A stretch of 34,334 nt of DNA from Caldilineae bacterium (GCA_037446815.1 JBBIHX010000016.1:1-34334), one strand, 5' to 3'. Counted from the stretch's first letter, positions 7,486-30,273 are shown. Notes: generated by a model not told the origin, from the sequence alone. Numbers and translations: made by a program.

Positions 7486-7500
7486 ACGTTCACAGGACGC

Positions 7501-7650
7501 GACGCGGCTTCATCTTGTGTCGGTGAAGCGCATGGACACTCTCCTTGTGTGTCGTTGCGAGCGAAGCGAAGCAACCTCACGCCCCAGAGATTGCTTCGGG
7601 CGCTCCGCGCCCTCGCAATGACAAATACCAACAGACTTTGGAACCGAATC
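7501..7650 (+). mobile_element. MITE-like element type 1
   Basis: 150 bp; ends gacgcggcttcatcttgtgtcgg / ccaacagactttggaaccgaatc; flanks caggacgc and cagaaagc (6/8 match). Confidence 0.8.
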
Positions 7651-7680
7651 CAGAAAGCGGCGCGGCTCCGAAGAGGCGTG

Positions 7681-7719
7681 AAAACGAAACGCCGGAGGCC
7701 CCATTGCCCCCGGCGTTTC
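7681..7719 (-). terminator. rho-independent terminator after carbamate kinase
   Basis: Stem gaaacgccgg...ccggcgtttc followed by gtttt on minus strand. Confidence 0.65.
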
Positions 7720-7741
7720 CTGTGGAACTCAACGCGATGCG

Positions 7742-8686
7742 CTACGGGACGATGAGCGTCCCCGTCTCGCCGCGCAGGGCGCGCTCAATATTCTCCGGGT
7801 TGGTGATGATGGCCTGCTTCCCGCCCGCCTCCAGGAACCAGATGATGGCCTGGATCTTGGGGAGCATGGAGCCCTTTGCGAAGTGCCCCTCGGCCATGTA
7901 CTGCTTGGCCTCGGCAACGGTCATGCGGTCTATGGCCTTCTGGTCCGGCTTGCCGTAGTTCAGGTACACCTTCTCCACGGCGGTGGAGATGAGGAACAGG
8001 TCGGCCTTGATGCTTCGGGCCAACAGCGACGAGGCGTAGTCCTTGTCAATCACGGCGGCGATGCCTTCCAGTTCGCCCCGTTCGTTCTCCACGACGGGGA
8101 TGCCGCCGCCGCCCACGGTGATCACCACAAACCCCTTGCGAATCAACTCCTCTACCGCGTCCTGCTCCTTGACGACCTTCGGAAGGGGTGAAGCGACAAC
8201 CCGGCGCCAGCCGCGTCCGGCGTCCTCTACCACGTGCCAGCCCTCCTGGTCGCGGCGGCGAAGGGCCTCCTCTTCGGTCATGAACGAGCCGATGGGCTTG
8301 GTTGGGTTCTGGAAGGCGGGGTCGTTGCGATCCACGATGACCTGGGTAACGACGGTTACCGCCTGCTTCTTGATGCCGCGGCGCAGGAATTCGTTCTGCA
8401 GGTTCTGCTGGAGCATGTAGCCGATGGCGCCCTGGGTGTCGGCCCCGCATACGTCCAGCGGCACCTCGTGCAGTTCGTGGCGCGCCAGTTCGCTGCGGCG
8501 CAGGATGAACCCCACCTGCGGGCCGTTGCCGTGGCCGATGGCCACATCCCAGCCCTGCTCAATCATGCCGGCGATGTGATGGCAGGTCTCCTTCGCGGCC
8601 TGGTACTGGTCGGGCACGGTCTGGTGGTTCTTGTCCTTGATGAGCGAGTTGCCGCCAATGGCAACCACTGCGACCTTCTTCGTCAT
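7742..8686 (-). CDS. arcC: carbamate kinase
   Basis: VVAIGGNSL, HGNGPQVG, PTKPIG, GRGWRRVVASP, GGGGIPV, AVIDKD, GSMLPK. Confidence 0.96.
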   Translation of the reverse strand: MTKKVAVVAIGGNSLIKDKNHQTVPDQYQAAKETCHHIAGMIEQGWDVAIGHGNGPQVGFILRRSELARHELHEVPLDVCGADTQGAIGYMLQQNLQNEFLRRGIKKQAVTVVTQVIVDRNDPAFQNPTKPIGSFMTEEEALRRRDQEGWHVVEDAGRGWRRVVASPLPKVVKEQDAVEELIRKGFVVITVGGGGIPVVENERGELEGIAAVIDKDYASSLLARSIKADLFLISTAVEKVYLNYGKPDQKAIDRMTVAEAKQYMAEGHFAKGSMLPKIQAIIWFLEAGGKQAIITNPENIERALRGETGTLIVP

Positions 8687-8720
8687 GGGGATGCACTCCT
8701 TTGTATGATGTGTCTATGGC

Positions 8721-9764
8721 CTACAGAAGTCCCGACATCGTCAGCGCCATGACGGCCTTCTGCACGTGCAGGCGGTTCTCGGCGACGTCGTAGATGCACG
8801 AGCGCGGGCCGCTGGCGACCTCGTCGGTAACCTCATGCCCGCGGTCAATGGGCATCGGATGGGTGAAGATGGCGTTGTCGGTCAGGCGCATCTTCTCGGC
8901 GTCGCAAATCCACTCGGTCAGTTTCAGCGCCCGCTCAATCTCCTGCTGCTTGAGGAACTCGCCGTCCTTGTATGCTTCGGGGCTCATCCAGTGGCGCGAG
9001 TACACCACATGGGCGCCCACATACCCCTCGCGCACGTCGGTGGTCTCCTCAAACGACGTGCCGTTGGCGCGGCAGTTGGCCTTGGTCCACTCAATGACCT
9101 GCGGGTCCAGCGGGTACCCCTCAGGGTGCGCCAGGGTTACGTGCATCCCAAAGCGGGAGCCGATGAGCAGCGCCTCCTGCACCGAGCACCAGGAGCGGGC
9201 CAGCGCGCCATGTCCCCAGGTTACGAGCAGTTTCTTGCCCTTCAGCACGCTCATGTCCAGCCCTTGCCCAGGCCCCTTGCCGTACCACTCGGCCCAGCCC
9301 ATGATGTCGGCCAGGCCCTGGAATGGGTGGTACTTGTCGTGAGCCATGGAGAAGACAGGCATCCTGGCCCAGTAGGCGTACTCGCGGATGAGGTCATCGC
9401 CCTCGCCATACGCGCCGATCTTGTCCTCCAGGATGCGGATGCCCAAGCCCGCGGCGTAGCGATCCATCACCTTGGCGGCATCCTCCACGGTCTCGCCCGC
9501 GGTGGTCGCCGTCTTCAGGCGCATGGCCTTCGGTTCCAGGAACTGCGCGTGCCCGCCTAGTTCGGTGGCTGCGCATTCAAAACTCTGGCGCGTGCGCACC
9601 GACGGGTTGTAGAAGAACATGAAGAATGTCTTGTTCTGCAGGAGACTGGTGAAGCGGGGATTGAAGCGGTCGCGCTTCATCTTCGCAGCCAGGTCCAGCA
9701 CCGCATCCAGTTCATCCTTGCTCCATTCCTGCGTCGTAATCAGGTCCTTGCCGTAGAGATCCAT
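8721..9764 (-). CDS. transcarbamylase (OTCase/knotted family), divergent, substrate unknown
   Basis: NPSVRT, HPFQGLAD, AENRLHVQKA; atypical TWGHGALARSW, YSRHW and THPMP (not HCLP). Confidence 0.85.
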   Translation of the reverse strand: MDLYGKDLITTQEWSKDELDAVLDLAAKMKRDRFNPRFTSLLQNKTFFMFFYNPSVRTRQSFECAATELGGHAQFLEPKAMRLKTATTAGETVEDAAKVMDRYAAGLGIRILEDKIGAYGEGDDLIREYAYWARMPVFSMAHDKYHPFQGLADIMGWAEWYGKGPGQGLDMSVLKGKKLLVTWGHGALARSWCSVQEALLIGSRFGMHVTLAHPEGYPLDPQVIEWTKANCRANGTSFEETTDVREGYVGAHVVYSRHWMSPEAYKDGEFLKQQEIERALKLTEWICDAEKMRLTDNAIFTHPMPIDRGHEVTDEVASGPRSCIYDVAENRLHVQKAVMALTMSGLL

Positions 9765-9799
9765 CTTCTGCCTCCCAACAGGAAAGATTCAAGAATCCA

Positions 9800-9875
9800 C
9801 TCACCGCAGAGGGCGTGGAACACGCAGAGGGAGAAAAGCGTTCCTCCCTCTGTGGCCTGCGCGCTCTGCGGTGAG
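9800..9875. repeat. palindromic repeat family F between the transcarbamylase genes
   Basis: ctcaccgcagag 9800-9811 inverted at 9864-9875. Confidence 0.65.
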
Positions 9876-9897
9876 CCTACTGTAGGTTGTGTCCGTC

Positions 9898-10968: not shown

Positions 10969-11001
10969 AAGCATCTCCTTTTGTAAAGTTGTTTTCGTTT
11001 C

Positions 11002-11742: not shown

Positions 11743-11754
11743 CCGGACACCCCT

Positions 11755-11801
11755 TTGTCTGATGTCTGACATATTATACACGCGCGCCGCGGGGCCGTCA
11801 A
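11755..11801 (-). promoter_or_regulatory. sigma70 promoter with candidate GntR operator
   Basis: TTGACG(11801-11796)-17 bp-TATAAT(11778-11773), followed by atgtcagacatcagacaa (palindrome atgtc-a-gacat; tcagaca twice). Confidence 0.75.
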
Positions 11802-11817
11802 ATCGCCAGCGGTTGCG

Positions 11818-11991
11818 GAATCGGTTCCAAGGGCTGTTGGCATCTACCGTCATTCTGAGCGGCGAAGCCGCGAAGAATCTCACCCCTCACCCCAACCCTC
11901 TCCCGAAGGGCGAGGGCGTGTCGCCTTCGGCTCAGCATGACAGAGAGGGAGGCGGCGCGCGGGACAGACCAACACAGTTTGGAACCGAATC
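11818..11991. mobile_element. MITE-like element type 2 (same TIRs, different cargo)
   Basis: Ends gaatcggttccaagggctgttgg / ccaacacagtttggaaccgaatc; cargo gtcattctgagc...gctcagcatgac with nested ccctctccc..gggcgaggg hairpin. Confidence 0.72.
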
Positions 11992-11999
11992 CAGCCGCG

Positions 12000-12150
12000 G
12001 AATCGGTTCCAAAGTCTGTTGGTAACCGTCATTGCGAGGGCGAGGAGCAGCCGAAGCAATTTCCGGGACGTGCGATTGCTTCGCGTCGCTCGCAATGACA
12101 TACAAGTGGAGTGGGCATGCGGTTCGCCAACACAAGATGAAGCACCGAAC
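12000..12150 (-). mobile_element. MITE-like element type 1, reverse orientation, diverged
   Basis: gaatcggttccaaagtctgttgg...gtcattgcgag...ctcgcaatgac...ccaacacaagatgaa; 8 bp from previous element; right end degenerate. Confidence 0.72.
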
Positions 12151-12158
12151 CGGCCGGC

Positions 12159-12187
12159 TTGACATCCTCACGACGCAGGGCTATCCT
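12159..12187 (+). promoter_or_regulatory. sigma70-type promoter for GNAT gene
   Basis: TTGACA(12159-12164)-17 bp-TATCCT(12182-12187). Confidence 0.68.
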
Positions 12188-13181: not shown

Positions 13182-13311
13182 ACGATCTCCTTGTGCGAAG
13201 TTGCGGTAGTTTATCACGCGCCCCGCCATCGCGCCAAACGCACGGCGCCCGGGCCAATCCCCGCCGCCGTCATCCTGAGCCGCGAAGGGCGAAGCAGGAC
13301 GGGAGGGGGAC

Positions 13312-13346
13312 AACGTGCGACGCACCTGCGAGGTGCGTCGCACGTT
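13312..13346. repeat. 35-bp palindrome family B
   Basis: aacgtgcgacgcacct-gcg-aggtgcgtcgcacgtt. Confidence 0.9.
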
Positions 13347-13380: not shown

Positions 13381-16300
13381 TCACTCCGCGCCGGTAACGG
13401 GCAGGCGCGCGGGGGCCGCCAGCACATCGGCGTCGGCGCGCACCAGCAGGCGGTAGCCGCCGACGTAGGGCGCGCGCTGGGCGTACTGGCTGACCACGCC
13501 CACGATTCGGAGCACGTCTCCGCGCGCGATCTTGGGCCGTTGGGCCTGGCCGCCCTCGCGAAAGTACACCCGCGCCGGCCCCGACCCGTCGTCCAGCCAT
13601 AGGGCGCGACTCTCCACGTCCATCACGCGCCCCACCAGCGCGACAAGCCGTCCTTCCCATGCCTCGCCCATGTCGCCGGTGCGGATGCCGACCGGAGCGA
13701 TGGCAATGTCGGCATCAAAGACCTGCAAATCGCCCGGGACGGACACATAGAGTTGCAGTTCGCCATGGTAGTCGCGCAGGCGGCCCGTGGCCCGCAGCCA
13801 CTGACCTTCCACCAGCGGCGGATACTCGCCCTTGGCAAGGTACACCGCCAACCCCACGTTGCGGTCCTGGAGGAACACCAGCCGCTCGCTCACCGTTCCC
13901 GGCGGCGCGGTCAGTTGCCCCTGCGTGATGAGCCGTGTCCCCGGCGGCTGGATTCGCGCCAGGGGCAGGTCCATGAAGGGCGGGCCAGGCTGCGGCGTGG
14001 GCGGGGGAAGGGCGCGATTCGCCTCGCCCGGCGTAACCGCGCAGTCCCGCGTCCACTCGCCCACCCCATCGGGGATGCGGCCAAATGAGCGGTCGTACCC
14101 GGGTGTCTTCGTGTACACGAAGCGATCGGCCGGCGTGCCGTGGGGCCTCAGCAGTTGCACCGTGTCGCCGCCGTTGTTCAGCGCGATTCCGGTCTGGCGG
14201 CCGAAGAGCACCAGGTAGCCGCCCGGCGGGACTTCGCTCCCTGGCGGCAGGGTGTACGGCTTGCTGCCGCCATCGGGCGCGTCGTCCAGCACCCAGCCGG
14301 CGAGATTCACCGCGCGCGCCTCCAGATTCCGCAGTTCTATCCATTCATCGTGTCCGGAATCCAACTGCCCATCCCCGTCCCAATCCGTGGCATGGGGCGC
14401 GGGCAGGATTTCGTTCAGAACCACCCGCGCCAGAAGGTCGGGAGTTGAAGTGCCCGTGGGTGTCGGGCTGGGCGTGCGGGTCGCCGTGCGGGTGTAGGTG
14501 GCCGTCCGCGTGGGAGTGGCCGTGCGGGTGNNNNNNNNNNNNNNNNNNNNNNNNNNNNNNNNNNNNNNNNNNNNNNNNNNNNNNNNNNNNNNNNNNNNNN
14601 NNNNNNNNNNNNNNNNNNNNNNNNNNNNNNGCGGGTCGCCGTGCGGGTGTAGGTGGCCGTCCGCGTGGGAGTGGCCGTGCGGGTGTAGGTGGCCGTCCGC
14701 GTGGGAGTGGCCGTGCGGGTGGGGCTGGGTGTGCGCGTCGGAGTCGGCGATCCCGGCGCGTTGGCGTGTCCCGGCGATGGCGGGTAGGCGGCCGTCCACC
14801 CGCCCGACTCCGTGCGGCTCCACGAGCGGTCGTAGCCCATGGGCGGATAGGCGGTCTCATCTACCAGGGCGCCATCGGGCCCCAACAAGCGCACGCTATC
14901 CCCGTCGTTGTTCAGTGCCAGGCCGGTATCGCGCTTGAACAGGACGAGATAGCCGCCCGGCTCCACCCACAGGTCGGCGGGCGCACGCCACGGCTTGCTG
15001 CCTCCATCTGCCGCGTCGTCCAACTCCCAGCCGGCCAGGTTGATCGCGACCGGGCCGCAGTTGAACACCTCTACCCACTCGTCGTCGCTGGAGGGAGTGC
15101 CATCGGAATCCCAATCCACGTAACGGGGCGCGGGGAGAATCTCGTTCAGTCGCACCGTGCGGGGATACGGGGTGCTGGTGGGCGTAACGCTTGGCGTCGG
15201 GGTCGGCGCAGGCGTCTCCGTCGGCCAGGGCGCCGGAGGCTCGGTCGCTGTGAGCGTGGCGGTGGGCGTGTCTGTGGGCGCCGAAGTGTCCGTCGGCGTC
15301 GGCGTGGGCGAAGGCGTCTCCGTCGGCGAAGGCGTGCGCGTCGGCGTCGGCGTGCACGTAACCGGCAGGTTCGGGCCTCCGGGTGAAGGCGCGTATTCCC
15401 ACGTCCAGGCGCCATCGGCCTGCTTGCTGTATGCGCGGTCGTAGTCGGCCTTGCCGTAGGTTACCTTCTCCACCAGGACGTTATCCGGGCGCAGGAAATG
15501 CACTTCGTCGCCGTCGTTGTTCAGCGCGATGCCCGACTGCTTCTGGTAGATGACGAGATACCCCCTGCCCCAGATGAACGTATAGGGCGGGATGCGATAC
15601 TCCTTGGAGCCGCCATCCCGTCGGTCGTCCAACTTCCACCCGCCCACGTCCACCGGATACCACGCAGAGTTGTAGATTTCAATGTACTCGTCGTCTGGCG
15701 AAGGCGTGCCGTCTCCGTCGTAATCCACCCAACGCGGGGCGGGCATGATTTCGCTCAAGTGCAGGGTGGTGGGATAGGGTGTCTTTGTGAGCGTCGGCGT
15801 GGCCGTGAGCGTCGCCGTCCTGGTGGGAGTAGGCGTGCGCGTCGGCGTGGGCGTCCTTGTCGGCGAGGGCGTGCGGGTGAGGGTGGCGGTTTTGGTGTCC
15901 GTTGGCGTCCTGGTGAACGTCGGCGTGCGCGTAGACGTTGGAGAGGGAATGTCGGTGCTCGTGGCGGTGGGCGTGGCGGTGGCGGGGAGATTGGGGCCGC
16001 CAGGCGAGGGCGGATAAAGGAGCGTCCACACGCCCGCGCCATCCGCCGTGCGGCTGTACGATGCGTCGGGCAGCGATGTGTAGTACGTGTGCGCGTCGGC
16101 CACCGTGCCGTCGGGCCGCAGCAGCCGCACCGTGTCGCCCGCGTTGTCCAGGTTGATGCCCGTCGCCCTGCGGAAGAACAGGAGAAAACCGCCGGGCTGA
16201 ATCCACGTGCCCGCGGGGATGACGTAAGGCGCGGAGCCGGCATCCCGGATGTCGTCCAGCATCCAGCCGCCGAGGTCAACCGGCTGATCGCTTGCGCAGA

Positions 16301-16957: not shown

Positions 16958-17054
16958 CGCGCCGCCTCCTCATGTGCCCGCTGCCCCACACCCATAGCAT
17001 ACCGCCATTGTGTTTCGTTGTCAAGCGGTTCAAGATCGGTGCCAAATAAAAAGG

Positions 17055-17138
17055 TGCCGAAGGAGGGATTTGAACCCACATGGGCGATTGCCCACTGCGC
17101 CCTGAACGCAGCGCGTCTGCCAATTCCGCCACTTCGGC
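17055..17138 (-). tRNA. tRNA-Leu(CAG)
   Basis: GCCGAAG/CTTCGGC acceptor stem, TGGCGGAATTGGCAGACGC D arm, CTGCG-TT CAG GG-CGCAG anticodon arm, long variable arm, GGTTCAAATCC; followed by CCT, so CCA not fully encoded. Confidence 0.96.
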
Positions 17139-17150
17139 ACTTCGGTTATT

Positions 17151-17179
17151 ATGGTAATGCGTTTTGGCCGATTTGTCAA
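17151..17179 (-). promoter_or_regulatory. sigma70 promoter for tRNA-Leu
   Basis: TTGACA(17179-17174)-17 bp-TACCAT(17156-17151). Confidence 0.72.
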
Positions 17180-17193
17180 ACTGGGTGGTGCGA

Positions 17194-17466
17194 CGATTGG
17201 TTTCAAACTCTGTTGGCATCTACCGTCATTCCGAGCGGCGAAGCCGCGAGGAATCTCGCGCCCCAATCCGTCCAATCCGTGCTATCCGTGGATGCAACCC
17301 CGAAGATGCTTCGCCTTCGCTCGCGATGACAGATGGGGGAATGCCGTGCGCTCGGCGCAGTCGGGGGCAGCGCCGTCATGTAGGGCGACCGGCCGGTCGC
17401 CCTACATGCTCGCAATGACGGAGGGCGCAACAACGTGCGACGCACCTTCGAGGTGCGTCGCACGTG
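17194..17466. repeat. composite repeat mosaic starting with a degenerate MITE end
   Basis: cgattggtttcaaactctgttgg TIR-like end, family C gtcattccgagcggcgaagccgcg, 9-bp periodic atccgtg.., GTAG REP 17380-17405, family B 17432-17466. Confidence 0.75.
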
Positions 17467-17483
17467 GAGACGCGGGCGGGATG

Positions 17484-18329: not shown

Positions 18330-18443
18330 ATCCGATACCTCCTCCAGAACATCATGATGGCGTTCACAACATACTAACCCCCTACCCGTCCTGAAGTTGC
18401 GAACCGCCACGCCTCCTGTCGTCGGTTCGGCGCCAGAGTGGGT

Positions 18444-18593
18444 GAGTCGGTCTCATCTTGTGTTGGTGAACCGTAGGCGCACTCTCCTCGTGTGTCGTTG
18501 CGAGCGAAGCGAAGCAACCCCACGTCCCAGGGATTGCTTCGGGCGCTCCGCGCCCTCGCAATGACAAATACCAACAGACTTTGGAACCGAATC
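18444..18593 (+). mobile_element. MITE-like element type 1 with perfect 8-bp target site duplication
   Basis: 150 bp; gagtgggt at 18436-18443 and 18594-18601. Confidence 0.85.
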
Positions 18594-18601
18594 GAGTGGG
18601 T

Positions 18602-18718
18602 GGGCATCTACTGTCGTCCTGAATCGCCAAGCGCCGAAGAATCTCCCCCTATCCGCGCAATCCATGTTATCCGTGGATACCGTTTCTCTATTCGCGTGGA
18701 TTCGCGTTATCCGTGGAC
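18602..18718. repeat. composite repeat unit (family C plus 9-bp periodic motifs)
   Basis: Reverse-complement homolog of the 119-bp unit at 26718-26836. Confidence 0.65.
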
Positions 18719-18743
18719 AACGATGATGTTCCCGAACGCGGCT

Positions 18744-18772
18744 TTGACACAATCGCCCTGTTCGCATACAAT
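18744..18772 (+). promoter_or_regulatory. sigma70 promoter upstream of fusA paralog
   Basis: TTGACA(18744-18749)-17 bp-TACAAT(18767-18772). Confidence 0.8.
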
Positions 18773-18987
18773 ACGCCTGCACGTGGGCCTGCGTGGAGGA
18801 ATCCCCAGGCCCGCCATTCATGTTTCGTATTACCCGAATCACGCAACCGGACAACGCCGCCTGCCGCGGAGCGCACGGGCCACGCAGACGGGACACACAG
18901 CGAATATCGGTGGGCGCTGCGGCCACGGGGTTGTTCCGGTGAATTTGTCAATACACTCGGACGCAATGTCCTGGACGAGGAGGATCC

Positions 18988-21057: not shown

Positions 21058-21083
21058 TTGCGCGGGCGTCAGAGACCTTTCGC

Positions 21084-21117
21084 GCGGGCTTGCAGCGATG
21101 CAGGCCCGCTTCTTTTT
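21084..21117 (+). terminator. rho-independent terminator after fusA
   Basis: gcgggcttgca-gcga-tgcaggcccgc followed by ttcttttt. Confidence 0.85.
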
Positions 21118-21134
21118 GGGCGCACCCCGCGCGG

Positions 21135-21470
21135 GGCGGTATCCACGGATAGCACGGATGGCGGAAAGTAGGGCAAATTGCCAATTTGCCCCACGAGTTT
21201 CCTCGGCGCCCCGCGTCTCAGACCGACGGTTGCATGTGGGACCGACCCGCCGGTCGCCCTTACACTACCCGTGCGGCGGTATCCACGGATAGCGCGGATT
21301 GCGCGGATAGGGGCATGCGCTCAACGTGCGACGCACCTCCGAGGTGCGTCGCACGTTGTCCCTCCATCCCATTGTCATGCTGAGCCGAAGGCGAAGCATC
21401 TCCAGGCTTGCATCCACGGATAGCGCGGATTGCACGGATTTGGGCGCGCGATCCTTCGCGGATTCTCCCC
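21135..21470. repeat. composite repeat mosaic
   Basis: Three ccacggatagc(a/g)cggat periodic blocks, GTAG REP 21168-21194, family B 21323-21357, family C gtcatgctgagccgaaggcgaagcatct. Confidence 0.75.
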
Positions 21471-21477
21471 TGCGGTT

Positions 21478-21627
21478 GACTCGGTTCCAAAGTCTGTTGG
21501 TAGCCGTCATTGCGAGGGCACGCAGTGCCCGAAGCAGTCTCCGGGGCGTGGGATTGCTTCGCTCCGCTCGCAATGACACACGAGGACAGCGTGCATGCGG
21601 TTCACCAACGCAAGATGAAACCGACTC
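21478..21627 (-). mobile_element. MITE-like element type 1, reverse orientation
   Basis: 150 bp; gactcggttccaaagtctgttgg / ccaacgcaagatgaaaccgactc; no clear TSD. Confidence 0.8.
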
Positions 21628-21642
21628 CCCGCTATCCCCGTC

Positions 21643-21672
21643 TTGCGCGGAACCTTGCTTTGGGTCTATAAT
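21643..21672 (+). promoter_or_regulatory. sigma70-type promoter for nfeD operon
   Basis: TTGCGC(21643-21648)-18 bp-TATAAT(21667-21672). Confidence 0.62.
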
Positions 21673-21692
21673 GCAGGCAAGGAGAGTGCACG

Positions 21693-23009
21693 ATGACTGC
21701 GGATCGCAAAGTGCGTATCGCCATAAGTTTGTCCCTCGTGGTGCTGGGGCTGCTGCTCCTTGCGGCTCCCTCCGGCGCGCAGACCGGCGGAAAGGCAATC
21801 GTGCTCAACGTCAAGGGCCCCATCACGCCCGTTGTGCTCTCCTACCTCAACCGCGGGCTGGAGTATGCCCAGAATGGCAACGCTTCTCTCATCGTCATCC
21901 AGTTGGACACCCCCGGTGGCTCGGTGGAGATCATGAAGTCGCTGACCGACGAGATGATTCGGAGTTACGTGCCCATCGCCGTGTGGGTGGGGCCGGAGGG
22001 GGCGCGCGCGGCATCGGCGGGCACGTTCGTCACCCTGGCGGCGCACGTTGCAGCCATGGCGCCCGGGACCACCATCGGCGCGGCCAGCGTCGTCAGCATG
22101 CAGGGCGAGGAACTGGACGAAACCAGCAAGGCCAAGATCACGAACGACCTCACGGCGCGGATTCGCAATTTCACCCAGCGCCGAGGCCCCCAGGCCCAGG
22201 AATGGGCCGAGCGCACCGTAACCGAGGCCATCGCCGCCACCGCCGACGAGGTGTACCAACTCGGCGTCATTGACTTCGTCGCCCCCACCATCCCCGACCT
22301 GCTGCGCCAGATGGACGGCATGACGGTGCGCGTGGCGGGCCAGGACATGGTGCTGCGCACGGCAGACCTGCCGGTGGAGAACGTGCCTATGACCCTCCCC
22401 GAGCAGTTGCTGCACCTCATCACCGACCCCAACATCGCCTTCATCCTGCTCACGCTTGGGTTGAACGGCCTTCTGTTTGAATTGTCCAGCCCGGGCGGGT
22501 TCGCTGCCGGAATCATCGGCGGCATCTGTCTGGTGCTTGCCCTGTACGCGCTGGGCGTGCTGTCGGTCAACTGGACGGGCATCCTGTTCATCATCCTGGC
22601 GTTCGTCCTATTCATCGCGGACATCAAGGCGACCGCCCACGGCGTGCTCACGGTGGGCGGCATCGCCTCGTTCGTCTTCGGCGCGCTGATTCTGTTCAGT
22701 TCGCCCATCTACACCATCTCTCGCGCGCTGGTCTTCTCCGTTGCATTGGGGACGGGAGCCTTCTTCGCCTTCGCCGTGAGCAAGGCGCTGCTTGCCCAGA
22801 AGCGCCGGCCAAGCACCGGCCGCGAGGCGCTCATCGGCAGACGGGCTGTTGTGCGCGTGCCGTTGGAGCCTGAAGGAATGGTCATGCTCGCCGGGGAACT
22901 GTGGATGGCGCGGGCCGAGCAGGGGACTATTGACCGCGGCGAGACCGTGGAAGTCGTGGGGCTGGACGGGTTTACCGTTATCGTTCGCGCTGTTCCATCA
23001 GAGAACTGA
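21693..23009 (+). CDS. nfeD: NfeD family membrane-bound serine protease (long form)
   Basis: [25 protein letters not shown]lpP-like domain, TM bundle, C-terminal OB domain GELWMA. Confidence 0.92.
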
Positions 23010-23026
23010 CGAAAGGGGGAAGGGAG

Positions 23027-23797
23027 ATGTTTGAGGTGCTGACGAGTTTCGGCGGGCTGATTCTCATCTTGATATTCCTGCTCGGCATGGCCATCAAGAT
23101 CGTGCAGGAGTACGAGCGGGGCGTGGTGTTCCGCCTGGGGCGATTGGTGGGCGCCAAGGGCCCCGGTCTGTTCCTCATCATCCCGTTCGTGGACCGCATG
23201 GTCAAGGTGGACCTGCGGGTGGTAACGCTGGATATTCCTGCCCAGGAAGCCATCACCAAGGACAACGTTACGGTCAAAGTCAACGCGGTGGCCTACTTCC
23301 GGGTCATCAACCCCGAGGCGGCCATTGTGCAGGTGGAAGACTACCGCCGCGCCACGTGGCAAATCGCCCAGACAACGCTGCGGAGCGTCCTGGGCCAATC
23401 GGAACTGGACGAATTGCTGGCCCACCGCGAGGAAATCAACCAGAAACTCCAGCGCATTATTGACGAGCAGACCGAGCCGTGGGGCATCAAGGTCAGCATC
23501 GTGGAGGTCAAGGATGTGGAGTTGCCCGACACCATGAAGCGGGCGATGGCGCGCCAGGCCGAGGCCGAACGCGAGAAGCGGGCCAAGATCATCCACGCCG
23601 AGGGCGAGTTCCAGGCGTCGCAGACCTTGCGCCAGGCTGCCAGCGTCATCTCCACGGAGCCTGCCGCCATTCAGCTGCGCTACTTGCAGACCCTGACCGA
23701 GATCGCCGTGGAGAAGAACTCCACCATCATCTTCCCAGTGCCGCTGGACTTCCTGAAAGCCTTTGCCCAATCCCTGGGATTGCAGGGGAAAGAGTAA
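23027..23797 (+). CDS. SPFH/stomatin (slipin) family protein
   Basis: [46 protein letters not shown]; canonical nfeD partner. Confidence 0.95.
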
Positions 23798-23815
23798 TCT
23801 CCTCCGAGGAAACAC

Positions 23816-25213
23816 TTGGACGCAAATCGGGAAAAGAACGCGGCCGCCGCCAGTTCGGTGGTGGCCGCCGTGGGACTCACAACGTTCAAGATTGTGGTCG
23901 GCCTGATGACCGGCAGCCTGGGCATCCTGTCCGAGGCGGCGCATTCTGGACTGGACTTGGTGGCGGCCCTCGTTACATGGTTTGCCGTGAGGGTCTCCGA
24001 CCGCCCCGCCGATTCCCGGCACCATTACGGGCATGGGAAGGTGGAGAACCTCTCCGCCCTGGTGGAAACTCTGCTCCTTCTCCTCACCTGCGCCTGGATC
24101 GTGTACGAAGCGATTCGCCGCATCTTCTTTGCCGAGGTGCACGTGGATGCCAACCTCTGGGCGTTTCTGGTGATGGGGGTCTCCATCGTCATAGACTTCA
24201 CCCGGTCTCGGGTCCTCATGCGGGCGGCGGAGAAGCATAACAGCCAGGCGCTGGAGGCCGACGCGCTCCATTTCCAGACGGACATCTGGAGTTCCTCGGT
24301 GGTCATTGTGGGGCTGGCGCTGACGTGGGGCGAGCAGCGGCTCGGCTGGCCGTCGTGGTTGGCCAAGTCGGACGCCGTGGCCGCGCTGGGCGTGGCGTTC
24401 ATCGTCATCGGCGTGAGCGTGCGCCTGGGTCGGCGGACCATCGCCGCGTTGCTGGACACGGCGCCGCCGGGGTTGCGCGAAACCGTCCGAGACACGGTCG
24501 CTTCGGTGCCGGGCGTGCTCAGCGTGAACCAGGTGCGGGTGCGCCAGGGCGGGCCCTACACGTTCGCCGACGTGGACATCGCCGTGGGGCGCGAGATGTC
24601 CTTCAGCCAGGCGCACGATGTGGCAACGGCGGTGGAGCGCCGCCTGCGCCAACTCCTGCCGCAGGCGGATGTAGTCGTCCACGTGGGGCCCGCGACCCAT
24701 CGCGGCGAGACCGACGACCAGAAGGTGCGCGCGGTGGCAGCGGCGCATGGCCTTGCGGCTCATTCCATCCACGTGCACCACATTCGCGGCCAGGTGTACC
24801 TGGAGTTTCACCTGGAAGTGCCCGACGATCTGGACTTGGCGCGGGCGCACGCCCTCGTCTCGGAGGTGGAATCGGCCCTGCGGGGCGAGTTCCCGGGCCT
24901 TGTGGATGTCATCACCCACATAGAGCCGGCCTCCCGCGAGCGGGTGGTGGCCCCCATCTCGCCCGAAGAGGTCGCGCGGGTGGAGGCAGAGGTGCGGCGC
25001 ATTGCCGACGAGCAGTGCGGCGATGGCCATTGGCATCGCCTCATGGTGCGCGACGAGTCGGGCATGTTGTCCATCTCCTTGCACTGCCAGATGGCGGGCA
25101 GCGCCTCGGTCCAGGCCGCGCACGACCTCTGCGAGCAATTGGAAGCGGCCGTGCGCCAGACGATTCCCAACGTGGGGCAGGTGGTCATCCACGTGGAACC
25201 CCTGGACGATTGA
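23816..25213 (+). CDS. cation diffusion facilitator (FieF-like) with three C-terminal ZT_dimer-like domains
   Basis: HSGLD and HFQTD metal sites, HHYGHGKVE; three AH...VH(V/I)xP repeats; TTG start. Confidence 0.9.
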   Translation: MDANREKNAAAASSVVAAVGLTTFKIVVGLMTGSLGILSEAAHSGLDLVAALVTWFAVRVSDRPADSRHHYGHGKVENLSALVETLLLLLTCAWIVYEAIRRIFFAEVHVDANLWAFLVMGVSIVIDFTRSRVLMRAAEKHNSQALEADALHFQTDIWSSSVVIVGLALTWGEQRLGWPSWLAKSDAVAALGVAFIVIGVSVRLGRRTIAALLDTAPPGLRETVRDTVASVPGVLSVNQVRVRQGGPYTFADVDIAVGREMSFSQAHDVATAVERRLRQLLPQADVVVHVGPATHRGETDDQKVRAVAAAHGLAAHSIHVHHIRGQVYLEFHLEVPDDLDLARAHALVSEVESALRGEFPGLVDVITHIEPASRERVVAPISPEEVARVEAEVRRIADEQCGDGHWHRLMVRDESGMLSISLHCQMAGSASVQAAHDLCEQLEAAVRQTIPNVGQVVIHVEPLDD

Positions 25214-25244
25214 ACCCTGTACATAGCGCAATCGGAGCGTCCTC

Positions 25245-25835
25245 ATGCTTGGCCGTTTGGGCAAACAACGCGGCTGGATTGGACTTGCCCTGTCCTACAT
25301 CCTGGTGGCGGGGGTTGCATTTCTGGCGGCGCGATGGCCGGCCCCCGGCGGCGTGCAGATTCTGGCGCCCGAGCCTTCGCCCACGCCCCAGCCCAGCCCC
25401 ACGCCCGCGCCCGCGCGGGTATACGTGAGCGGAGCCGTCGTCGCGCCGGGCGTGTACACCCTGCCGCCAGGGAGCATCGCCCAGGACGCCCTGAACGCCG
25501 CCGGTGGCCCCGCGCAGGACGCCGACCTGTCCCTGGTGAACCTCGCCGCGCCCGTGTCCAACGGCCAGCAGGTACACATCCCCCGCGTCGGCGAGAAGGT
25601 GGCCCAGAAAAGCCCGACGCCGGCATCACGCGCCCTCACCGGGCCGCTCAACCTCAACACGGCCACGGCTTCGGAACTGGAGCAACTCCCCGGCATCGGC
25701 CCCGCCCTGGCTGCGCGAATTGTGCAGTACCGCCAGGAACACGGACCCTTTCGCACGGTAGATGCGTTGTTGTTGGTGTCAGGGATCGGCCCAGCCACGC
25801 TGGACAGGATTCGGAGCCTGGTTACGGTGGACTGA
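25245..25835 (+). CDS. comEA: ComEA family DNA-binding protein (SLBB plus helix-hairpin-helix)
   Basis: TM, VYVSGAVVAPGVY, VNLAA, LNLNTATASELEQLPGIGPALAARI, VSGIGP. Confidence 0.92.
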   Translation: MLGRLGKQRGWIGLALSYILVAGVAFLAARWPAPGGVQILAPEPSPTPQPSPTPAPARVYVSGAVVAPGVYTLPPGSIAQDALNAAGGPAQDADLSLVNLAAPVSNGQQVHIPRVGEKVAQKSPTPASRALTGPLNLNTATASELEQLPGIGPALAARIVQYRQEHGPFRTVDALLLVSGIGPATLDRIRSLVTVD

Positions 25836-25901
25836 CCGCCCTGGCACGGGCCTTGCACCCCGTCATCACGCGAAACCATCATCCGTCAGAAAGGGGAGCC
25901 T

Positions 25902-26498
25902 ATGTTCCGAACGTCGCTTGCGCCAAAGGCCGCCGCCATACTCCTCCTCGCGCTGCTCGCTGCGTTGCCGCCGTCGGGCGCGGCCCGGCCCATCGCCGAA
26001 GCGCAGTTGCCCCTGCTGCACCTTTCGCCCACCTTGCTCGTCGTGCCGATTGGAGAGACGTCGTGCGCGGACTTGCGGGTGGAGGACGTGGAGAACCTGT
26101 TCGGGTTTGAGACGACGATTCGCTTTGATCCCAGTCGGCTGGCCGTCGTGGACGCGGCGCCTGGGACGCCTGGGGTTCAGGTTGCGATCGGGCCGTTCCT
26201 TCAGCCCGCGAACCCCTCCAACTGGTGGGTCGCGAACTCGGTGGACAACGCGGGTGGCACCATCGGGTTGGCCATCGCCCTCATCGCGCCCGAGACGGGG
26301 CGCAGCGGCAGCGGCACCCTTGCCACGGTGTGCTTCCGGGGGCTGAATCGGGGGCATTCGGCCATTGCCCTGCCGGAGACCGGCACGCTCCTGCTAGACC
26401 CGCAGGTTTCCGTCATCCCCTTTGCGACGAAGTCCGGCGGGGCGCTCGTCGGGCCCGTGTACCGCTTCCGAGTCCCCATGGTGGCGAAGGGCTACTAG
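25902..26498 (+). CDS. secreted cohesin-domain protein
   Basis: Signal peptide; VENLFGFETTIRFDPSRL...GSGTLATVCF cohesin-like pattern; C-terminal YRFRVPMVAK. Confidence 0.7.
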   Translation: MFRTSLAPKAAAILLLALLAALPPSGAARPIAEAQLPLLHLSPTLLVVPIGETSCADLRVEDVENLFGFETTIRFDPSRLAVVDAAPGTPGVQVAIGPFLQPANPSNWWVANSVDNAGGTIGLAIALIAPETGRSGSGTLATVCFRGLNRGHSAIALPETGTLLLDPQVSVIPFATKSGGALVGPVYRFRVPMVAKGY

Positions 26499-26527
26499 CG
26501 CGCACCCGCGGATGACCGGGCCGTAAC

Positions 26528-26980
26528 CGCGAATCGCGCGAACGCACGCGAATGGAGAACGTGCGACGCACCTCGGAGGTGCGTCGCACGTTGTCATGCC
26601 GAACGCCCGAGTCTAAAGCCTCGGGCTGAGTGCACAAAGCCCTACGGGCTGACAGCCCCGAAGGGGCTTTGGTCGTTCAGCGCGGGGGTTTAGCCCCGCG
26701 CGGTCATTGCAGGCGAAGCGAATCGCGCGAACCCACGCGAATACAGAAACGGTATCCACGGATAGCACGGATAGCGCGGATTGGAGAAGGCGAGATTCTT
26801 CGCGGCTTCGCCGCTCAGAATGACAGCACCTGAACCGCGAATCGCGCGAATCCACGCGAACAGACAAACGGTATCCACGGATAGCACGGATGGCGCGGAT
26901 AGGACGAGGTGAGATTCTTCGCGGCTTCGCCGCTCAGAATGACAGCACCTGGACCGCGAATCACGCGAACCCACACGAAT
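26528..26980. repeat. composite repeat mosaic including 119-bp tandem duplication
   Basis: Family B 26558-26592; cccgag..ctcggg, agccccgaaggggct and cgcgggg..ccccgcg hairpins; units 26718-26836 and 26837-26955, partial third copy. Confidence 0.8.
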
Positions 26981-27031
26981 GGGGGTGGGGCGGGGGCTTC
27001 CCCTGATGCCACGTGCGAGGGGCTGCTCCGC

Positions 27032-27241
27032 GCGCCTGCCGGTGGCCCTACTGCGAGGGCATGACGAAGTCGCGTCCGACGATGATNNNNNNNNNNNNNN
27101 NNNNNNNNNNNNNNNNNNNNNNNNNNNNNNNNNNNNNNNNNNNNNNNNNNNNNNNNNNNNNNNNNNNNNNNNNNNNNNNNNNNNNNGCGCCTGCCGGTGG
27201 CCCTACTGCGAGGGCATGACGAAGTCGCGTCCGACGATGAT
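27032..27241. other. scaffold gap with 55-bp duplicated flanks
   Basis: 27032-27086 is identical to 27187-27241. Confidence 0.9.
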
Positions 27242-28552
27242 GCGCAGGTTGCCGGCGCCGGTCTGGCCGCTGCTCTCCTTGCGGATGTTCCGCTCTGCGA
27301 CGTTGAGCAACTGGGCCAGCAGCGCCACGGTCTGCGTGTTGCCGGCGTAGTCTATGATGAGCGTCTCGGGGTAGTCGCTGCGGTCGGCGTTCTCAATCGC
27401 CACGACCTCAAACCCTTGCTCCTTGAGGAGAGCGGCCATCTGCGCCGCTAGGCCGGGCACGCCCGCGCCGTTGAGCACCTCAATCTGGGCCGACTCGCCG
27501 GGGACGCGCTTGTGGTTGTTGTTGCCGGACGAGAACATCTCGTCCACCAGCGCGCGGATCTTCTCCCGATCGGGCAGAAGGACGTCGCCGCCGCTGGGGG
27601 TCTTGGTCTCCACCACCATGGTGTAGTCTATGACCCTGGACTGGATGTTCGCCGAGTCCACCTGGTTGCCCAGTTTGGCCAGGGCGAGGATCTCTCCGGG
27701 CTGCAGGTCGGTCTGCACAGCGCCCATGACCGTCGCCATGAGGCTGGGGAGTTTGGGCAGGAGGTTGAGCCGCAGGGCTTTGTCGCGCGCGGCCATGAGC
27801 ACCTGCTGCTGGCGGCGCCCGCGGTCAATGTCGCTGCTGCCATGGCGCACTCGGGCATATTTCAGCGCCAGGTCGCCGTCCATGTGCACCAGGCCGGCGG
27901 GGATGTGGACTTCCTGGTAGCCGTAGTCGTCGGTGGGGTACTGCGTGTCGTCTATGGGCTTCTCCACCAGCACGTCAATGCCGCCGATTTGGTCAATGAG
28001 TTTGCGGAACCCGTCAAAGTCCACCAGGATGTAGCCGTGGATGGGCACGCCCAGGAACTCCTGCACAGTGCGCATGGCCAGGGCCGGCCCGCCGCCAGGA
28101 TACTTCTTGAGCTCGCCAAGGACAAACGCCTGATTGATGCGGCTTTCGCCGTAGCCGGGGATCGGCACCCACAGGTCGCGCGGGATGGACAACATGCCCG
28201 CGGACTTGGTGGCGGGGTCAAGCGTCAGCACGATGAGGGTGTCGGTGCGGTACACGGTTTCATCGGGGCGCTTGTCGGCTCCCAGCAGGAGCAGGTTCAC
28301 GCGCTCGGTGCGTTGCCAGACTGGCACCTGCGGCAGGTCGGAGTTGGTCCCGGCCGGTGGCGCGGGCGCGAAGAAGTTGAGGTTCGGCAACAGCGGGATG
28401 TTGGCTTCGGCGACCAGCGCACGCACGGTGCCATAGAAGACGTAGCCGGAAAACAACCCGCCCAGCGCAAACAGCACCAGGGCGATATAGAGAAACAGAC
28501 GCGTTTTCTGCTGTGTCCCCCCTCGCGGAGGGAAGGATAATTGTCTGCTCAT
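27203..28552 (-). CDS. LCP (LytR-CpsA-Psr) family protein with LytR C-terminal domain
   Basis: TM, NLLLLGADKR, RTDTL, LSIPRDLWV, YARVRH..SDIDRGRRQQ, IEVLNGAGVPGLA; start uncertain. Confidence 0.92.
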   Translation of the reverse strand: MSRQLSFPPRGGTQQKTRLFLYIALVLFALGGLFSGYVFYGTVRALVAEANIPLLPNLNFFAPAPPAGTNSDLPQVPVWQRTERVNLLLLGADKRPDETVYRTDTLIVLTLDPATKSAGMLSIPRDLWVPIPGYGESRINQAFVLGELKKYPGGGPALAMRTVQEFLGVPIHGYILVDFDGFRKLIDQIGGIDVLVEKPIDDTQYPTDDYGYQEVHIPAGLVHMDGDLALKYARVRHGSSDIDRGRRQQQVLMAARDKALRLNLLPKLPSLMATVMGAVQTDLQPGEILALAKLGNQVDSANIQSRVIDYTMVVETKTPSGGDVLLPDREKIRALVDEMFSSGNNNHKRVPGESAQIEVLNGAGVPGLAAQMAALLKEQGFEVVAIENADRSDYPETLIIDYAGNTQTVALLAQLLNVAERNIRKESSGQTGAGNLRIIVGRDFVMPSQ

Positions 28553-28615
28553 CCAGCGTTCCAGAATCAAGATAGAAAGCCCCGGGTGCAGATAGACGAT
28601 CACGGGGCAGTTGGC

Positions 28616-28643
28616 ATTATATCCATTTGACGCCGGACGTCAA
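28616..28643 (-). promoter_or_regulatory. sigma70-type promoter for LCP gene
   Basis: TTGACG(28643-28638)-16 bp-TATAAT(28621-28616). Confidence 0.68.
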
Positions 28644-28657
28644 CTAACGGTTCCCTG

Positions 28658-28880
28658 GGATTCGCGCGATTCGCTTCGCCCGCCATGACCGCGCGGGGCT
28701 AAACCCCCGCGCTGCATGACCCAAGCCCGTAGGGCTTTGTGCACTTAGCCCGAGGCTTCAGACTCGGGCGTCCGGCGGGCGGGCACACCTCACCCCCGGC
28801 CTGCGGCCTCCCTCTCTTCGCCCACGACGAGGTGCCGGGCATGACAACGTGCGACGCACCTCCGAGGTACGTCGCACGTT
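28658..28880. repeat. composite repeat mosaic, inverted homolog of 26558-26733
   Basis: Same module order in reverse complement; family B at 28846-28880. Confidence 0.8.
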
Positions 28881-28905
28881 ACCTGCTTTGCTCGCAATGG
28901 CGGTG

Positions 28906-29640
28906 CTAGCGGCTCTTATCCCACAGCAACTTGAGCGTGTTCAGCGCAAGGCCATACCGGCGGTCTAGCACGCGGGGGTCGGTGCTCTCCGGCTCGTTGA
29001 ACATGGTAACGAACGGCACGGTGATGCCCTGCACGCGCAGGTACCCGTTGGGCTTGCCGCCGGTGAGGAGACCCCAGTCGTCCTCGCCGTAGGTGCGCTC
29101 CATCTCGGAGCGGGGTACGGAGTGGGTGAGGATGCCATCCTTGCGCTTTTCATCGTAACGCGCCAGGTTGCGCCGCCATGATTCCTCAAAGGAGACGAGG
29201 ATGTACAAAATGGCGCCCCGTTGCAGCACGCGGGGGTCCAGCCGCGAGAGGGCGCGCTCGTAGCCATAGTTCTTGCCGCGCGAGAACTCCACCAGCGTCG
29301 TGTGGCCCGGCCTGGGGTCGGAGCGGAGCCGGTCCTGCAGCGCGCGGTTCAGGTCGTCTATCAGCACATCCCAGACCTCGTCCGAGGCGACCACGTACCC
29401 GAATTCGGCCGGGCGCGACAGTCGGCGGGGCTTGCCCTGCTTCTCCAGTTCGTCCTCCTGCAGAAACCGCTGCCAGAGGAACACGAAGTCGTCCACGACA
29501 TCAAAGTTGCCGATGGCGTACCGTTGCGCGCGAACGTGGTCGGGCACCTTGGACATGAAATCTATGAACTCAGACTTGCCGCTGGCCGGACGTCCGAGAA
29601 CCAGCAGGTACGGGAATACGTCGGCGGGTGTATCAGCCAT
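28906..29640 (-). CDS. hypothetical P-loop NTPase/kinase-like protein
   Basis: LLVLGRPASGKSE Walker A, LVEFSRG, ESWRRNLAR lid-like motif; ATG after gggag. Confidence 0.75.
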   Translation of the reverse strand: MADTPADVFPYLLVLGRPASGKSEFIDFMSKVPDHVRAQRYAIGNFDVVDDFVFLWQRFLQEDELEKQGKPRRLSRPAEFGYVVASDEVWDVLIDDLNRALQDRLRSDPRPGHTTLVEFSRGKNYGYERALSRLDPRVLQRGAILYILVSFEESWRRNLARYDEKRKDGILTHSVPRSEMERTYGEDDWGLLTGGKPNGYLRVQGITVPFVTMFNEPESTDPRVLDRRYGLALNTLKLLWDKSR

Positions 29641-29664
29641 GGCCTGCTCCCGAAGATGCTGCGA

Positions 29665-29859
29665 TTAGTTGTTCTCGCTCTTGTCCTTCGCAGACGGCTC
29701 CGCGCTCTCGGTCTTCTTCGGCTCGCCGGTGGATGCTTCACGGAAGCCACGGATCGCCTTGCCCAGGGCAGACCCGATCTCCGGCAGCCTCCCGACGCCG
29801 AAGATGATCACGACGATGACCAGGATCAGGATCAGTTCGGGCACGCCAAGTTGTGGCAT
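29665..29859 (-). CDS. tatA: twin-arginine translocase subunit TatA/E
   Basis: [41 protein letters not shown] after ggagg. Confidence 0.94.
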
Positions 29860-29896
29860 ACCAACCTCCCATTCGTTGTTTGCAGCCGCACGCGCG

Positions 29897-29926
29897 ATTA
29901 TAGCACGTTGCGGCGTACCTATGCAA
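29897..29926 (-). promoter_or_regulatory. sigma70-type promoter for tatA
   Basis: TTGCAT(29926-29921)-18 bp-TATAAT(29902-29897), extended TGn. Confidence 0.7.
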
Positions 29927-29942
29927 AAACCCCCGCGCCGAA

Positions 29943-30099
29943 GATTCCGTTCCGAAGTCTGTTGGTGTCTGTCATTGCGACGGCGCGGCGCCCTCACCCC
30001 AGCCCTCTCCCGAAGGGCGAGGGCGTATCGCCTTCGGCTCAGCATGACAGAGCGGGGAGGCGGCGCGTGGGGCAGATCAACACAAGATGAAACCGAGTC
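29943..30099. mobile_element. MITE-like element type 2
   Basis: Ends gattccgttccgaagtctgttgg / tcaacacaagatgaaaccgagtc; cargo largely shared with 11818-11991. Confidence 0.72.
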
Positions 30100-30107
30100 C
30101 CACTGCC

Positions 30108-30257
30108 GACTCGGTTCCATCTTGTGTTGGTGAAACGCCTGGACACTCTCCTCGTGTGTCGTTGCGAGCGAAGCGAAGCAACCTCACGCCCCGGCGATTG
30201 CTTCGGGCGCTGCGCGCCCTCGCAATGACAAATACCAACAGACTTTGGAACCAAGTC
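30108..30257 (+). mobile_element. MITE-like element type 1
   Basis: 150 bp; gactcggttccatcttgtgttgg / ccaacagactttggaaccaagtc; flanks ccactgcc and cccctgcc (7/8 match). Confidence 0.85.
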
Positions 30258-30273
30258 CCCCTGCCGCGCCGTT

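Follow-up and report, generated by a model that had tools for sequence, protein, structure and literature searches.

Several groups of bacterial Mutator-like (p-MULT) mobile elements are described in PMC3942029. They generate target duplications of 8-9 bp, and their inverted ends, 18-39 bp long, share a conserved C at the terminus. For the TnGBS ICEs and ISLre2 (p-MULT 3), and likewise for the ISKra4 group (p-MULT 4), insertion takes place 15-17 bp upstream of the −35 box in σA promoters (PMC3942029, and Brochet et al. 2009 cited there). For TnGBS a contact with the RNA polymerase initiation complex has been proposed, by analogy with Ty3 (PMC3942029, Guerillot et al. 2014). According to the same paper IS256 (p-MULT 1) inserts randomly, and ISH6 (p-MULT 2) duplicates an AT-rich AANATNTT target. 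p-MULT elements with nearly symmetric ends occur in both orientations, with promoters on both sides.

We have analyzed a stretch of 34,334 nucleotides from Caldilineae bacterium (the window), which is contig C16 of a 3.19-Mb, 265-contig metagenome-assembled genome (MAG; 93.6% complete). The window contains four copies, each of exactly 150 bp, of a non-coding element. We consider it very probable that this is a non-autonomous MITE (miniature inverted-repeat transposable element) of a 1.5-kb bacterial Mutator-like (p-MULT) insertion sequence (IS), with staggered 8-bp insertion aimed upstream of promoters. An earlier sequence-only reading of the window had recognized a transposed element, and overlooked the promoter targeting, the interior of hairpins like those of repetitive extragenic palindromes (REPs), and the identity of the parent.

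Copies, ends and target duplications of the element

A blastn search of the MAG using the copy at 30108 gave 362 matches, of which 172 are near full length and 160 have 30-bp flanks; the genome search proposed in the sequence-only reading found the repeat far beyond the window. In the alignment of the 160 copies conservation falls from ~0.9 to ~0.35 precisely where the 150-bp consensus begins and ends; a length of exactly 150 bp is seen in 126 of these copies. The 8-bp flank duplication is perfect in 68 of the 160 and matches at ≥7 of 8 positions in 101. The mean identity of the flanking 8-mers is 6.16/8 compared with 2.31 ± 0.11 for shuffled pairings, well above chance as had been expected. 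The match is specific to 8 bp, and is near background for k = 7 and k = 9.

The same reading had projected many hundreds of elements per genome. A looser form of the end pattern matches 713 sites in the MAG (134 of them cut by contig ends), and 222 elements shorter than 400 bp are bounded by terminal inverted repeats (TIRs), the main classes being 150-151 bp (160) and 174-175 bp (19); the assembly breaks at the repeat and these copy numbers are lower bounds. A second MITE family of 150-151 bp has the same ends and a different hairpin pair. The identity of copies to the consensus ranges from 0.53 to 0.97 (median 0.92), the duplications are better preserved in the less diverged copies, and 23 copies have a neighbor that is ≥99% identical. 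This agrees with insertions of different ages, as previously proposed.

Within the window the 23-nt end pattern has 13 matches at ≤2 mismatches, compared with 0.03 expected from 100 shuffles. The two ends of the element are identical at 18 of 23 positions, i.e. they are imperfect inverted repeats, as had been described. The four 150-bp copies and two truncated or diverged ones (1-132 and 12000-12150) lie where they were originally placed, and the flanking 8-mers quoted for three of them are correct (8/8 at 18444, 7/8 at 30108 and 6/8 at 7501). Further relatives are found at 11818-11991, 17194-17265 and 29943-30099. The features of the window are as follows, where IRL and IRR denote the left and right forms of the inverted repeat and the promoters are predicted.

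1..132, + strand: partial 150-bp MITE copy truncated by the contig start, with an IRL-type end at 110-132
7457..7484, − strand: outward σ70-like promoter beside copy 7501 (−10 TATAAT 7457-7462, −35 7479-7484), facing an MFS gene; 2 mismatches in 12, −35 start 16 nt from the element end
7493..7500, no strand: left target-site duplication of copy 7501 (caggacgc); right copy cagaaagc at 7651-7658, 6/8
7501..7650, + strand: 150-bp MITE copy with an IRR-type left end (CATCTTGTG form), an IRL-type right end (CAAAGTCTG form) and a hairpin-pair interior
11773..11801, − strand: outward promoter TTGACG, 17 nt, TATAAT, beside 11818-11991 and facing a GntR gene; 1 mismatch, offset 16
11818..11991, no strand: 174-bp relative with the same ends and other hairpin cargo (GTCATTCTGAG type with a nested GC-rich hairpin)
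11992..11999, no strand: 8-bp spacer that separates two abutting elements and is a target 8-mer common to both
12000..12150, − strand: diverged 150-bp-type copy, inverted, far end decayed, 83% identity
17194..17265, no strand: one-ended relic of a degenerate TIR and a GTCATTCCGAG hairpin, adjoining the tRNA gene 17055-17138
18436..18443, no strand: left target-site duplication gagtgggt; right copy at 18594-18601 identical, 8/8
18444..18593, + strand: 150-bp MITE copy, absent from a ~98%-identical strain; no adjoining promoter
21478..21627, − strand: 150-bp MITE copy, inverted relative to the other three; duplication lost (2/8)
21643..21672, + strand: outward promoter TTGCGC, 18 nt, TATAAT, facing an NfeD gene; 3 mismatches, offset 15
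29897..29926, − strand: outward promoter TTGCAT, 18 nt, TATAAT, left of 29943-30099; 3 mismatches, offset 16
29943..30099, no strand: 157-bp relative that shares the ends and adjoins copy 30108 with 8 bp between them
30100..30107, no strand: 8-bp spacer ccactgcc, at the same time the left duplication of copy 30108; right copy cccctgcc at 30258-30265, 7/8
30108..30257, + strand: 150-bp MITE copy, the query of the genome-wide blastn search
30274..30302, + strand: outward promoter TTGATA, 17 nt, TATAAT, of a bifunctional-nuclease-domain gene; conserved in 4/4 sister genomes

A search for empty sites had also been suggested, and one was found in a related strain. We aligned the contigs of four public DNA runs (X1-X4) to window positions 17000-31500. 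A contig of X1 (3244 nt, ~98% identical) joins 17436-18431 to 18595-20836 with six letters between, and is therefore without the copy 18444-18593 and one copy of its 8-mer. None of the contigs of X2-X4 bridges any element in this region. In the sister species G001 and G002 (~80% identity) the element is missing at 5/5 orthologous intergenic sites examined, all on contig C2, with neither element nor end-like sequence there, and the promoters adjoining these sites remain recognizable. Clean empty sites in sister genomes for the insertions within the window itself were not found, given poor synteny, other repeats and a TIR-like end. Gene order is not conserved at sites 18444 and 21478. At site 7501 the left flank is common to G003 up to the 8-mer and is followed by other repeats. 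At site 30108 both G001 and G002 have, in the corresponding position, a TIR-like end that might stem from an ancient shared insertion or from a second hit.

The parent insertion sequence and the hairpin interior

Of 401 genomes sampled from the class, 26 contain the end pattern, with 472 matches in the MAG and ≤25 in any other; the reversed control of the pattern gave 0 matches in the 401 genomes. In G251 two ends 1349 bp apart enclose a transposase-like gene. Relatives of its product are found in 21 of the 401 class genomes, adjoining matches to the end pattern, and in 0/5 genomes of this genus. A scan of GTDB genomes gave 57 related loci, nearly all in records titled as Chloroflexota lineages. 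A TIR pair lies 1.3-1.8 kb apart at 35 of these 57, and 12 of 30 distinct insertions have 8/8 duplications. The locus L046 is an intact IS of 1545 bp with ends GACTCGGTTCTAAAGTGTGTTGG and GACTCGGTTCTATCTTATGTTGG, an open frame of 440 aa (428 aa from the first ATG) and the duplication ACTCCCTG on both sides, while L069 is a 1019-bp deletion derivative with the perfect duplication CAATGCGT on both sides. Metagenomes contain many relatives of the transposase, with 1682 proteins at E ≤1e-5 among 8000 scored, mostly on 1.5-kb contigs.

The transposase matches Pfam PF00872 with 27.9 bits (L046) and 26.6 bits (L037) for a cut-off of 21, over a stretch of ~60 residues. Eight relatives share invariant D171, D234 and E354 together with a common HQxCxWH stretch. 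From the spacing of the residues the first three probably form the DDE triad, and HQxCxWH would correspond to the C-x-x-H motif of Mutator. The N-terminus carries a 4-Cys zinc ribbon. The element ends read ...GAATC / GA..., with the terminal C of p-MULT elements accompanying the 8-bp duplication. The earlier attribution of the 150-bp element to DDE transposition is thus borne out by the 8-bp duplication throughout the genome, and by the same ends bounding a 1.5-kb IS that encodes what appears to be a Mutator-superfamily DDE transposase.

The MITE and the IS have two unlike end forms in common, and share just ~25-30 bp at each end. The window had been read as lacking a transposase, which holds, and a search of the whole MAG likewise yielded none; tblastn of the parent transposase against it gave a best E of 0.36, and against a plasmid collection no match. 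Three candidate sources were rejected. An autonomous copy was not found in the MAG, where no TIR pair >400 bp apart has a duplication and the unpaired ends inspected are decayed MITEs or belong to the second MITE family. IS256 is not the parent in this genus; PF00872 has 0 matches in the MAG, and the PF00872 genes of G001, G002 and G011 are without matching ends. ISKra4 is absent from the genus (0/5 genomes) and is a separate family elsewhere in the class. In that wider sample matches to the ISKra4 model (E ≤1e-20; e.g. L160-L165) were observed in 27 of 121 class genomes, of which 9 pass the family cut-off. Two of those with ISKra4, G071 and G089, also hold the IS family described here, at different loci.

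The interior of the MITE is a set of TGTC-tagged REP-like hairpins and not a transposase remnant. Two hairpins, inverted relative to each other, occupy consensus positions ~50-123; each has TGTC at its head, and the stems open with AT. In the sister genomes G003 and G004 the 75-nt hairpin core is found without inverted ends, in head-to-tail arrays whose period is ~82 bp (e.g. L003:1150-1630) and in dozens of scattered copies, and of the 899 hairpin heads in the MAG 536 are not part of a TIR-bounded element. These properties would suit a hairpin repeat of the REP or bacterial interspersed mosaic element type, spread by a RAYT-type tyrosine transposase or by a GIY-YIG nuclease of the Ssn kind, for which the inverted ends are incidental. 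The MAG does encode one small GIY-YIG protein, an 88-aa stand-alone protein of UPF0213 type inside an operon (G000:C99:3514-3732; L015:1453-1719, minus strand). It is the only small one in the MAG, each of the five genomes of the genus has a single copy, the nearest relatives of solved structure are UPF0213 proteins, and no hairpins were found beside its gene. The SRM search pattern of Chenal et al. is not enriched in the MAG, with 14 sites compared to 20-36 in three Markov controls. A link between the hairpins and a hairpin nuclease is therefore not supported here. Moreover the 8-bp duplications immediately flank the inverted ends on their outer side, and these ends belong to a DDE IS. Such a REP-type origin is thus very improbable.

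The interior also raises the question of whether the repeat is a family of structured non-coding RNA genes, small RNAs or cis-regulators, and not mobile DNA. The predicted fold of the consensus is strong (~-68 kcal/mol), and paired cells amount to 92% across 152 distinct copies compared with 37-41% for slid partners, a control that favors the structure, since this was itself deduced from the consensus. Covariation is seen in one stem pair (GC 105 versus AT 37). We rejected this as evidence of a selected fold, as the single covarying pair tracks subfamilies. An Rfam scan of the window has a tRNA as its sole match, the copies lie in both orientations relative to genes, and they have duplications and an empty site. 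An RNA gene family is barely credible as an explanation.

Two elements have a further module in the loop of the hairpin cargo. The sequences at 11884-11949 and 29991-30056 are a GC-rich hairpin (CCCTCACCCC...GAAGGGCGAGGGC..., 95% alike) that looks like a nested insertion of a third class of repeat, with similar cases on other contigs.

Insertion upstream of promoters

We defined a promoter-like site as one with ≤3 mismatches in 12 to TTGACA-N16-18-TATAAT, so that the promoters are predictions from a consensus scan. The flanks analyzed were the 402 outward flanks of 201 elements; 56 of these are another element after 8 ± 1 bp, leaving 346. Over the 402 flanks T is found at positions 16-17 in 55% compared with a background of 20%, and there is a −10 signal at 39-44. 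Flank positions 1-8 are GC-rich with ≤0.08 bit of information each, and the target 8-mer is thus without sequence signal. In the 346 flanks the promoter-like sites have their −35 start at offset 15 (82 sites), 16 (23), 14 (20), 17 (9) or 13 (4), with ≤2 at any other offset between 0 and 34. The qualifying flanks number 115 of 346 (33%) compared with 0.13% of random positions, and 110 of the 115 are followed by an outward open reading frame (ORF) within 400 nt, at a median of 38.5 nt after the −10. A promoter flank, with the −35 at 13-17 nt and mostly at 15, is present on at least one side of 111 of the 201 elements (55%), and it may be at either end. The promoters point outward in 94 cases versus 5 inward (160 elements). 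PMC3942029 scores targeting by a σA promoter 13-17 bp from the junction of inverted repeat and genome at >20% of sites; the elements here exceed that proportion by our own consensus scan, not by the PPP software. In the window, a σ70-type promoter at the required offset accompanies five of the seven elements with two recognizable ends.

Viewed from the promoters, 69 of the 248 promoter-like sites in the MAG with ≤1 mismatch have a TIR end 13-17 nt upstream, as do 137 of 552 with ≤2 and 222 of 1293 with ≤3. About a quarter of near-consensus promoters carry an element. So high a proportion could suggest that the promoters belong to the element or are made by it, i.e. that it is a mobile promoter cassette and the promoters are not pre-existing targets. 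Against this, the 8-bp duplication separates the element end from the promoter, promoters are found at either end, the −35/−10 spacers of the examples differ among themselves, and sister genomes without the element keep the orthologous promoters at the sites examined. We therefore regard a promoter cassette as extremely improbable.

The longest-ORF starts at 7485, 11883, 12159 and 30274, which were called mechanically, overlap predicted −35/−10 boxes beside elements. The true start codons are therefore probably further downstream, and the called ORFs too long.

Elements are often found in rows. The spacing is exactly 8 bp in 11 of 16 close neighbor pairs, the members of which frequently differ in family, size class or orientation. 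The relatives at 11818-11991 and 29943-30099 in the window are each exactly 8 bp from the neighboring copy. The 8-bp spacer is the same as a flanking 8-mer in 9 of the 11 pairs, and as both flanks in 4. This fits repeated insertion into the same surviving target, and does not demonstrate transposition circles like those of p-MULT elements, in which 6-10 bp separate the ends.

Taking these results together with the parent IS, we suggest the following course of events for a promoter-aimed MITE. The MITE would keep just the two ~25-bp ends of its parent, the IRL form (...CCAAAGTCTGTTGG) and the IRR form (...CATCTTGTGTTGG); the transposase gene would be replaced by two TGTC-tagged REP-like hairpins in inverted arrangement. 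Judging from the known chemistry of the family, a transposase acting in trans would bind the ends and paste the MITE into a staggered 8-bp cut; the supplying transposase may be unassembled in the MAG or lost from it. The 8-bp target would lie 7 nt upstream of the −35 hexamer of a σ70 promoter, placing the element end 15 ± 1 nt from the −35 in either orientation. Both the target 8-mer and the promoter would survive insertion, so that the same site could be hit again and rows with exact 8-bp spacing would form. The promoter might be recognized through contact with the RNA polymerase initiation complex (as proposed for TnGBS), through promoter-shaped or bent DNA, or through the −35 sequence itself.

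A number of observations do not sit easily with this account. The ~25-30 bp shared per end leaves a simple origin by internal deletion unsupported. Mobilization in this lineage is presumed, as neither the MAG (93.6% complete) nor any of the four sister genomes yielded a transposase of the family. Repeats are often unassembled in MAGs. The sites in the sister genomes are ~80% identical, and the original 8-mers are unreadable there. The promoters beside elements are putative, resting on consensus prediction. No recognizable promoter lies on either side of 73 of the 201 elements, including copy 18444 with its empty site. Lastly, full-length IS elsewhere are promoter-proximal (22 of 59 flanks) with looser offsets and a second cluster at 4-5. 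The last two points would be accommodated by random intergenic insertion, with the promoter association arising from survival of those copies that spare genes and promoters; and the window copies are indeed all intergenic, amid housekeeping genes (EF-G, DnaB, OTCase, DegV, LytR). Survival, however, predicts an exclusion zone with a broad upstream tail, whereas the −35 is at offset 15 in 82 promoter-like sites and at each of offsets 18-34 in ≤2. The repeated use of the same 8-mer by different family members also points to aiming. Random insertion followed by survival is therefore improbable, and we retain aimed insertion of the MITE.

In several of the full-length Chloroflexota IS (L105, L129, L130, L135, L137, L140 and L147) the −35 of the nearest promoter-like site is at offset 4-7, not 15, and overlaps the duplicated 8-mer. 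These sites may be a second targeting register, or arise by chance.

The window contains other repeats. A ~35-nt perfect palindrome (AACGTGCGACGCAC...GTGCGTCGCACGTT) has six intergenic copies (5979-6024, 13301-13346, 17421-17466, 21312-21357, 26547-26592 and 28835-28880), is also present as a hairpin in sister genomes at the site corresponding to 30108, and probably represents a further family of REP or terminator-like type. A CGGTATCCACGGATAGC(A/G)CGGAT-type repeat forms arrays at 21137-21450 and 26512-26990, with two 119-bp tandem units at 26718-26955; in G003 the site orthologous to 7501 is filled with CGGATTCG-rich sequence like that of these arrays. Two stretches of 100 N are found at 14531-14630, inside a highly repetitive lamin-tail-domain gene, and at 27087-27186. 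The second has an exact 55-nt duplicate on either side (27032-27086 and 27187-27241), and looks like a scaffolding artefact.

Comparison with known systems

The promoter-targeting behavior is of a known kind; what differs is the transposase lineage, the actor, a MITE with REP-hairpin cargo, and the large scale within one genome. Several hundred insertions in a single 3.2-Mb genome provide a large natural data set on aimed transposition in bacteria. The MITE would be a convenient substrate for asking how a DDE transposase finds promoters because it is 150 bp and non-coding. For annotation, the elements would mark real promoters in an uncultured phylum. Our search, confined to open-access text, turned up no publication on MITEs of this family, nor any on bacterial MITEs aimed at promoters.

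The element resembles the classical bacterial MITEs (Correia/NEMIS, Chunjie, QMITE and others), which according to the 2024 review PMC10969869 are short and non-coding, with inverted ends, duplications, mostly intergenic positions and many copies. A term search of that review gave 0 occurrences of 'IS256' and of 'upstream of promoter', and neither insertion aimed at −51 nor REP-hairpin cargo is described in it.

The hairpins are similar to the CGTC/TGTC-tagged REPs described by Di Nocera et al. (2013, PMC3733652) in the TGTC tag, the AT stem opening, a CCA-like tail and the inverted dimers. REP dimers within longer palindromes are reported there for Halothiobacillus neapolitanus and Anabaena variabilis. 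The stems here are longer and bulged, compared with published stems of 8-9 bp and loops of 4-5 nt. The interior would connect MITEs with tagged REPs, classes that are usually handled separately. The tagged REPs include the Neisseria dRS3/NTS repeats, which Ssn nucleases cleave (Chenal et al. 2025, PMC11893778); the repeat studied here differs from these SRM/NTS sequences in the lack of enrichment of the search pattern and of a visible link to the nuclease gene.

By the sole models that match it, the transposase lineage appears closest to IS256 and ISH6. The best match at family level is NCBIfam NF033543 of IS256, and the lineage shares with IS256 the PF00872 match, a length of ~1.3-1.5 kb, a single ORF and 8-9 bp duplications. 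Yet three full-length proteins score 33.1, 37.9 and 39.4 bits against a cut-off of 150 for NF033543, placing them outside that family. The best match in the PDB is weak, to the Mutator family transposase 6xg8 (E 0.15). IS256 insertion is reported as random in PMC3942029, whereas that of the family described here is promoter-proximal. ISH6 is the second-best match and likewise has 8-bp duplications in that source, but the scores of 27-43 bits fall well below the NCBIfam NF041731 cut-off of 240, and its AANATNTT target is AT-rich, in contrast to the GC-rich and uninformative 8-mers here.

We would also entertain, as an unlikely extension, that this is a third promoter-reading lineage of Mutator-like elements, nearer to IS256/ISH6 and working with single-base precision, presumably via the RNA polymerase initiation complex; that the MITE tags about a quarter of near-consensus promoters at −51; and that its hairpin cargo serves the host as a promoter insulator or regulatory handle. 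If true, such a role would account for every size class of MITE carrying a hairpin pair.

TnGBS, ISLre2 and ISKra4, as PMC3942029 describes them, share with the MITE a Mutator-like DDE transposase, the duplication length and the geometry of the promoter offset. The element studied here differs from them in being a 150-bp non-coding one in hundreds of copies, a kind of derivative outside the subject of PMC3942029, where a search for the word 'MITE' gave 0 matches. The transposase is also different from those of ISKra4 and ISLre2. It has the N-terminal 4-Cys zinc ribbon, the NCBIfam models of both give no match to it even at E ≤10, and hhalign against two Anaerolineae ISKra4 transposases gave a probability of 0.9%. 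The same geometry is therefore found without detectable kinship, so that promoter targeting must either be of greater age and wider spread in the Mutator superfamily than reported so far, or have arisen repeatedly.

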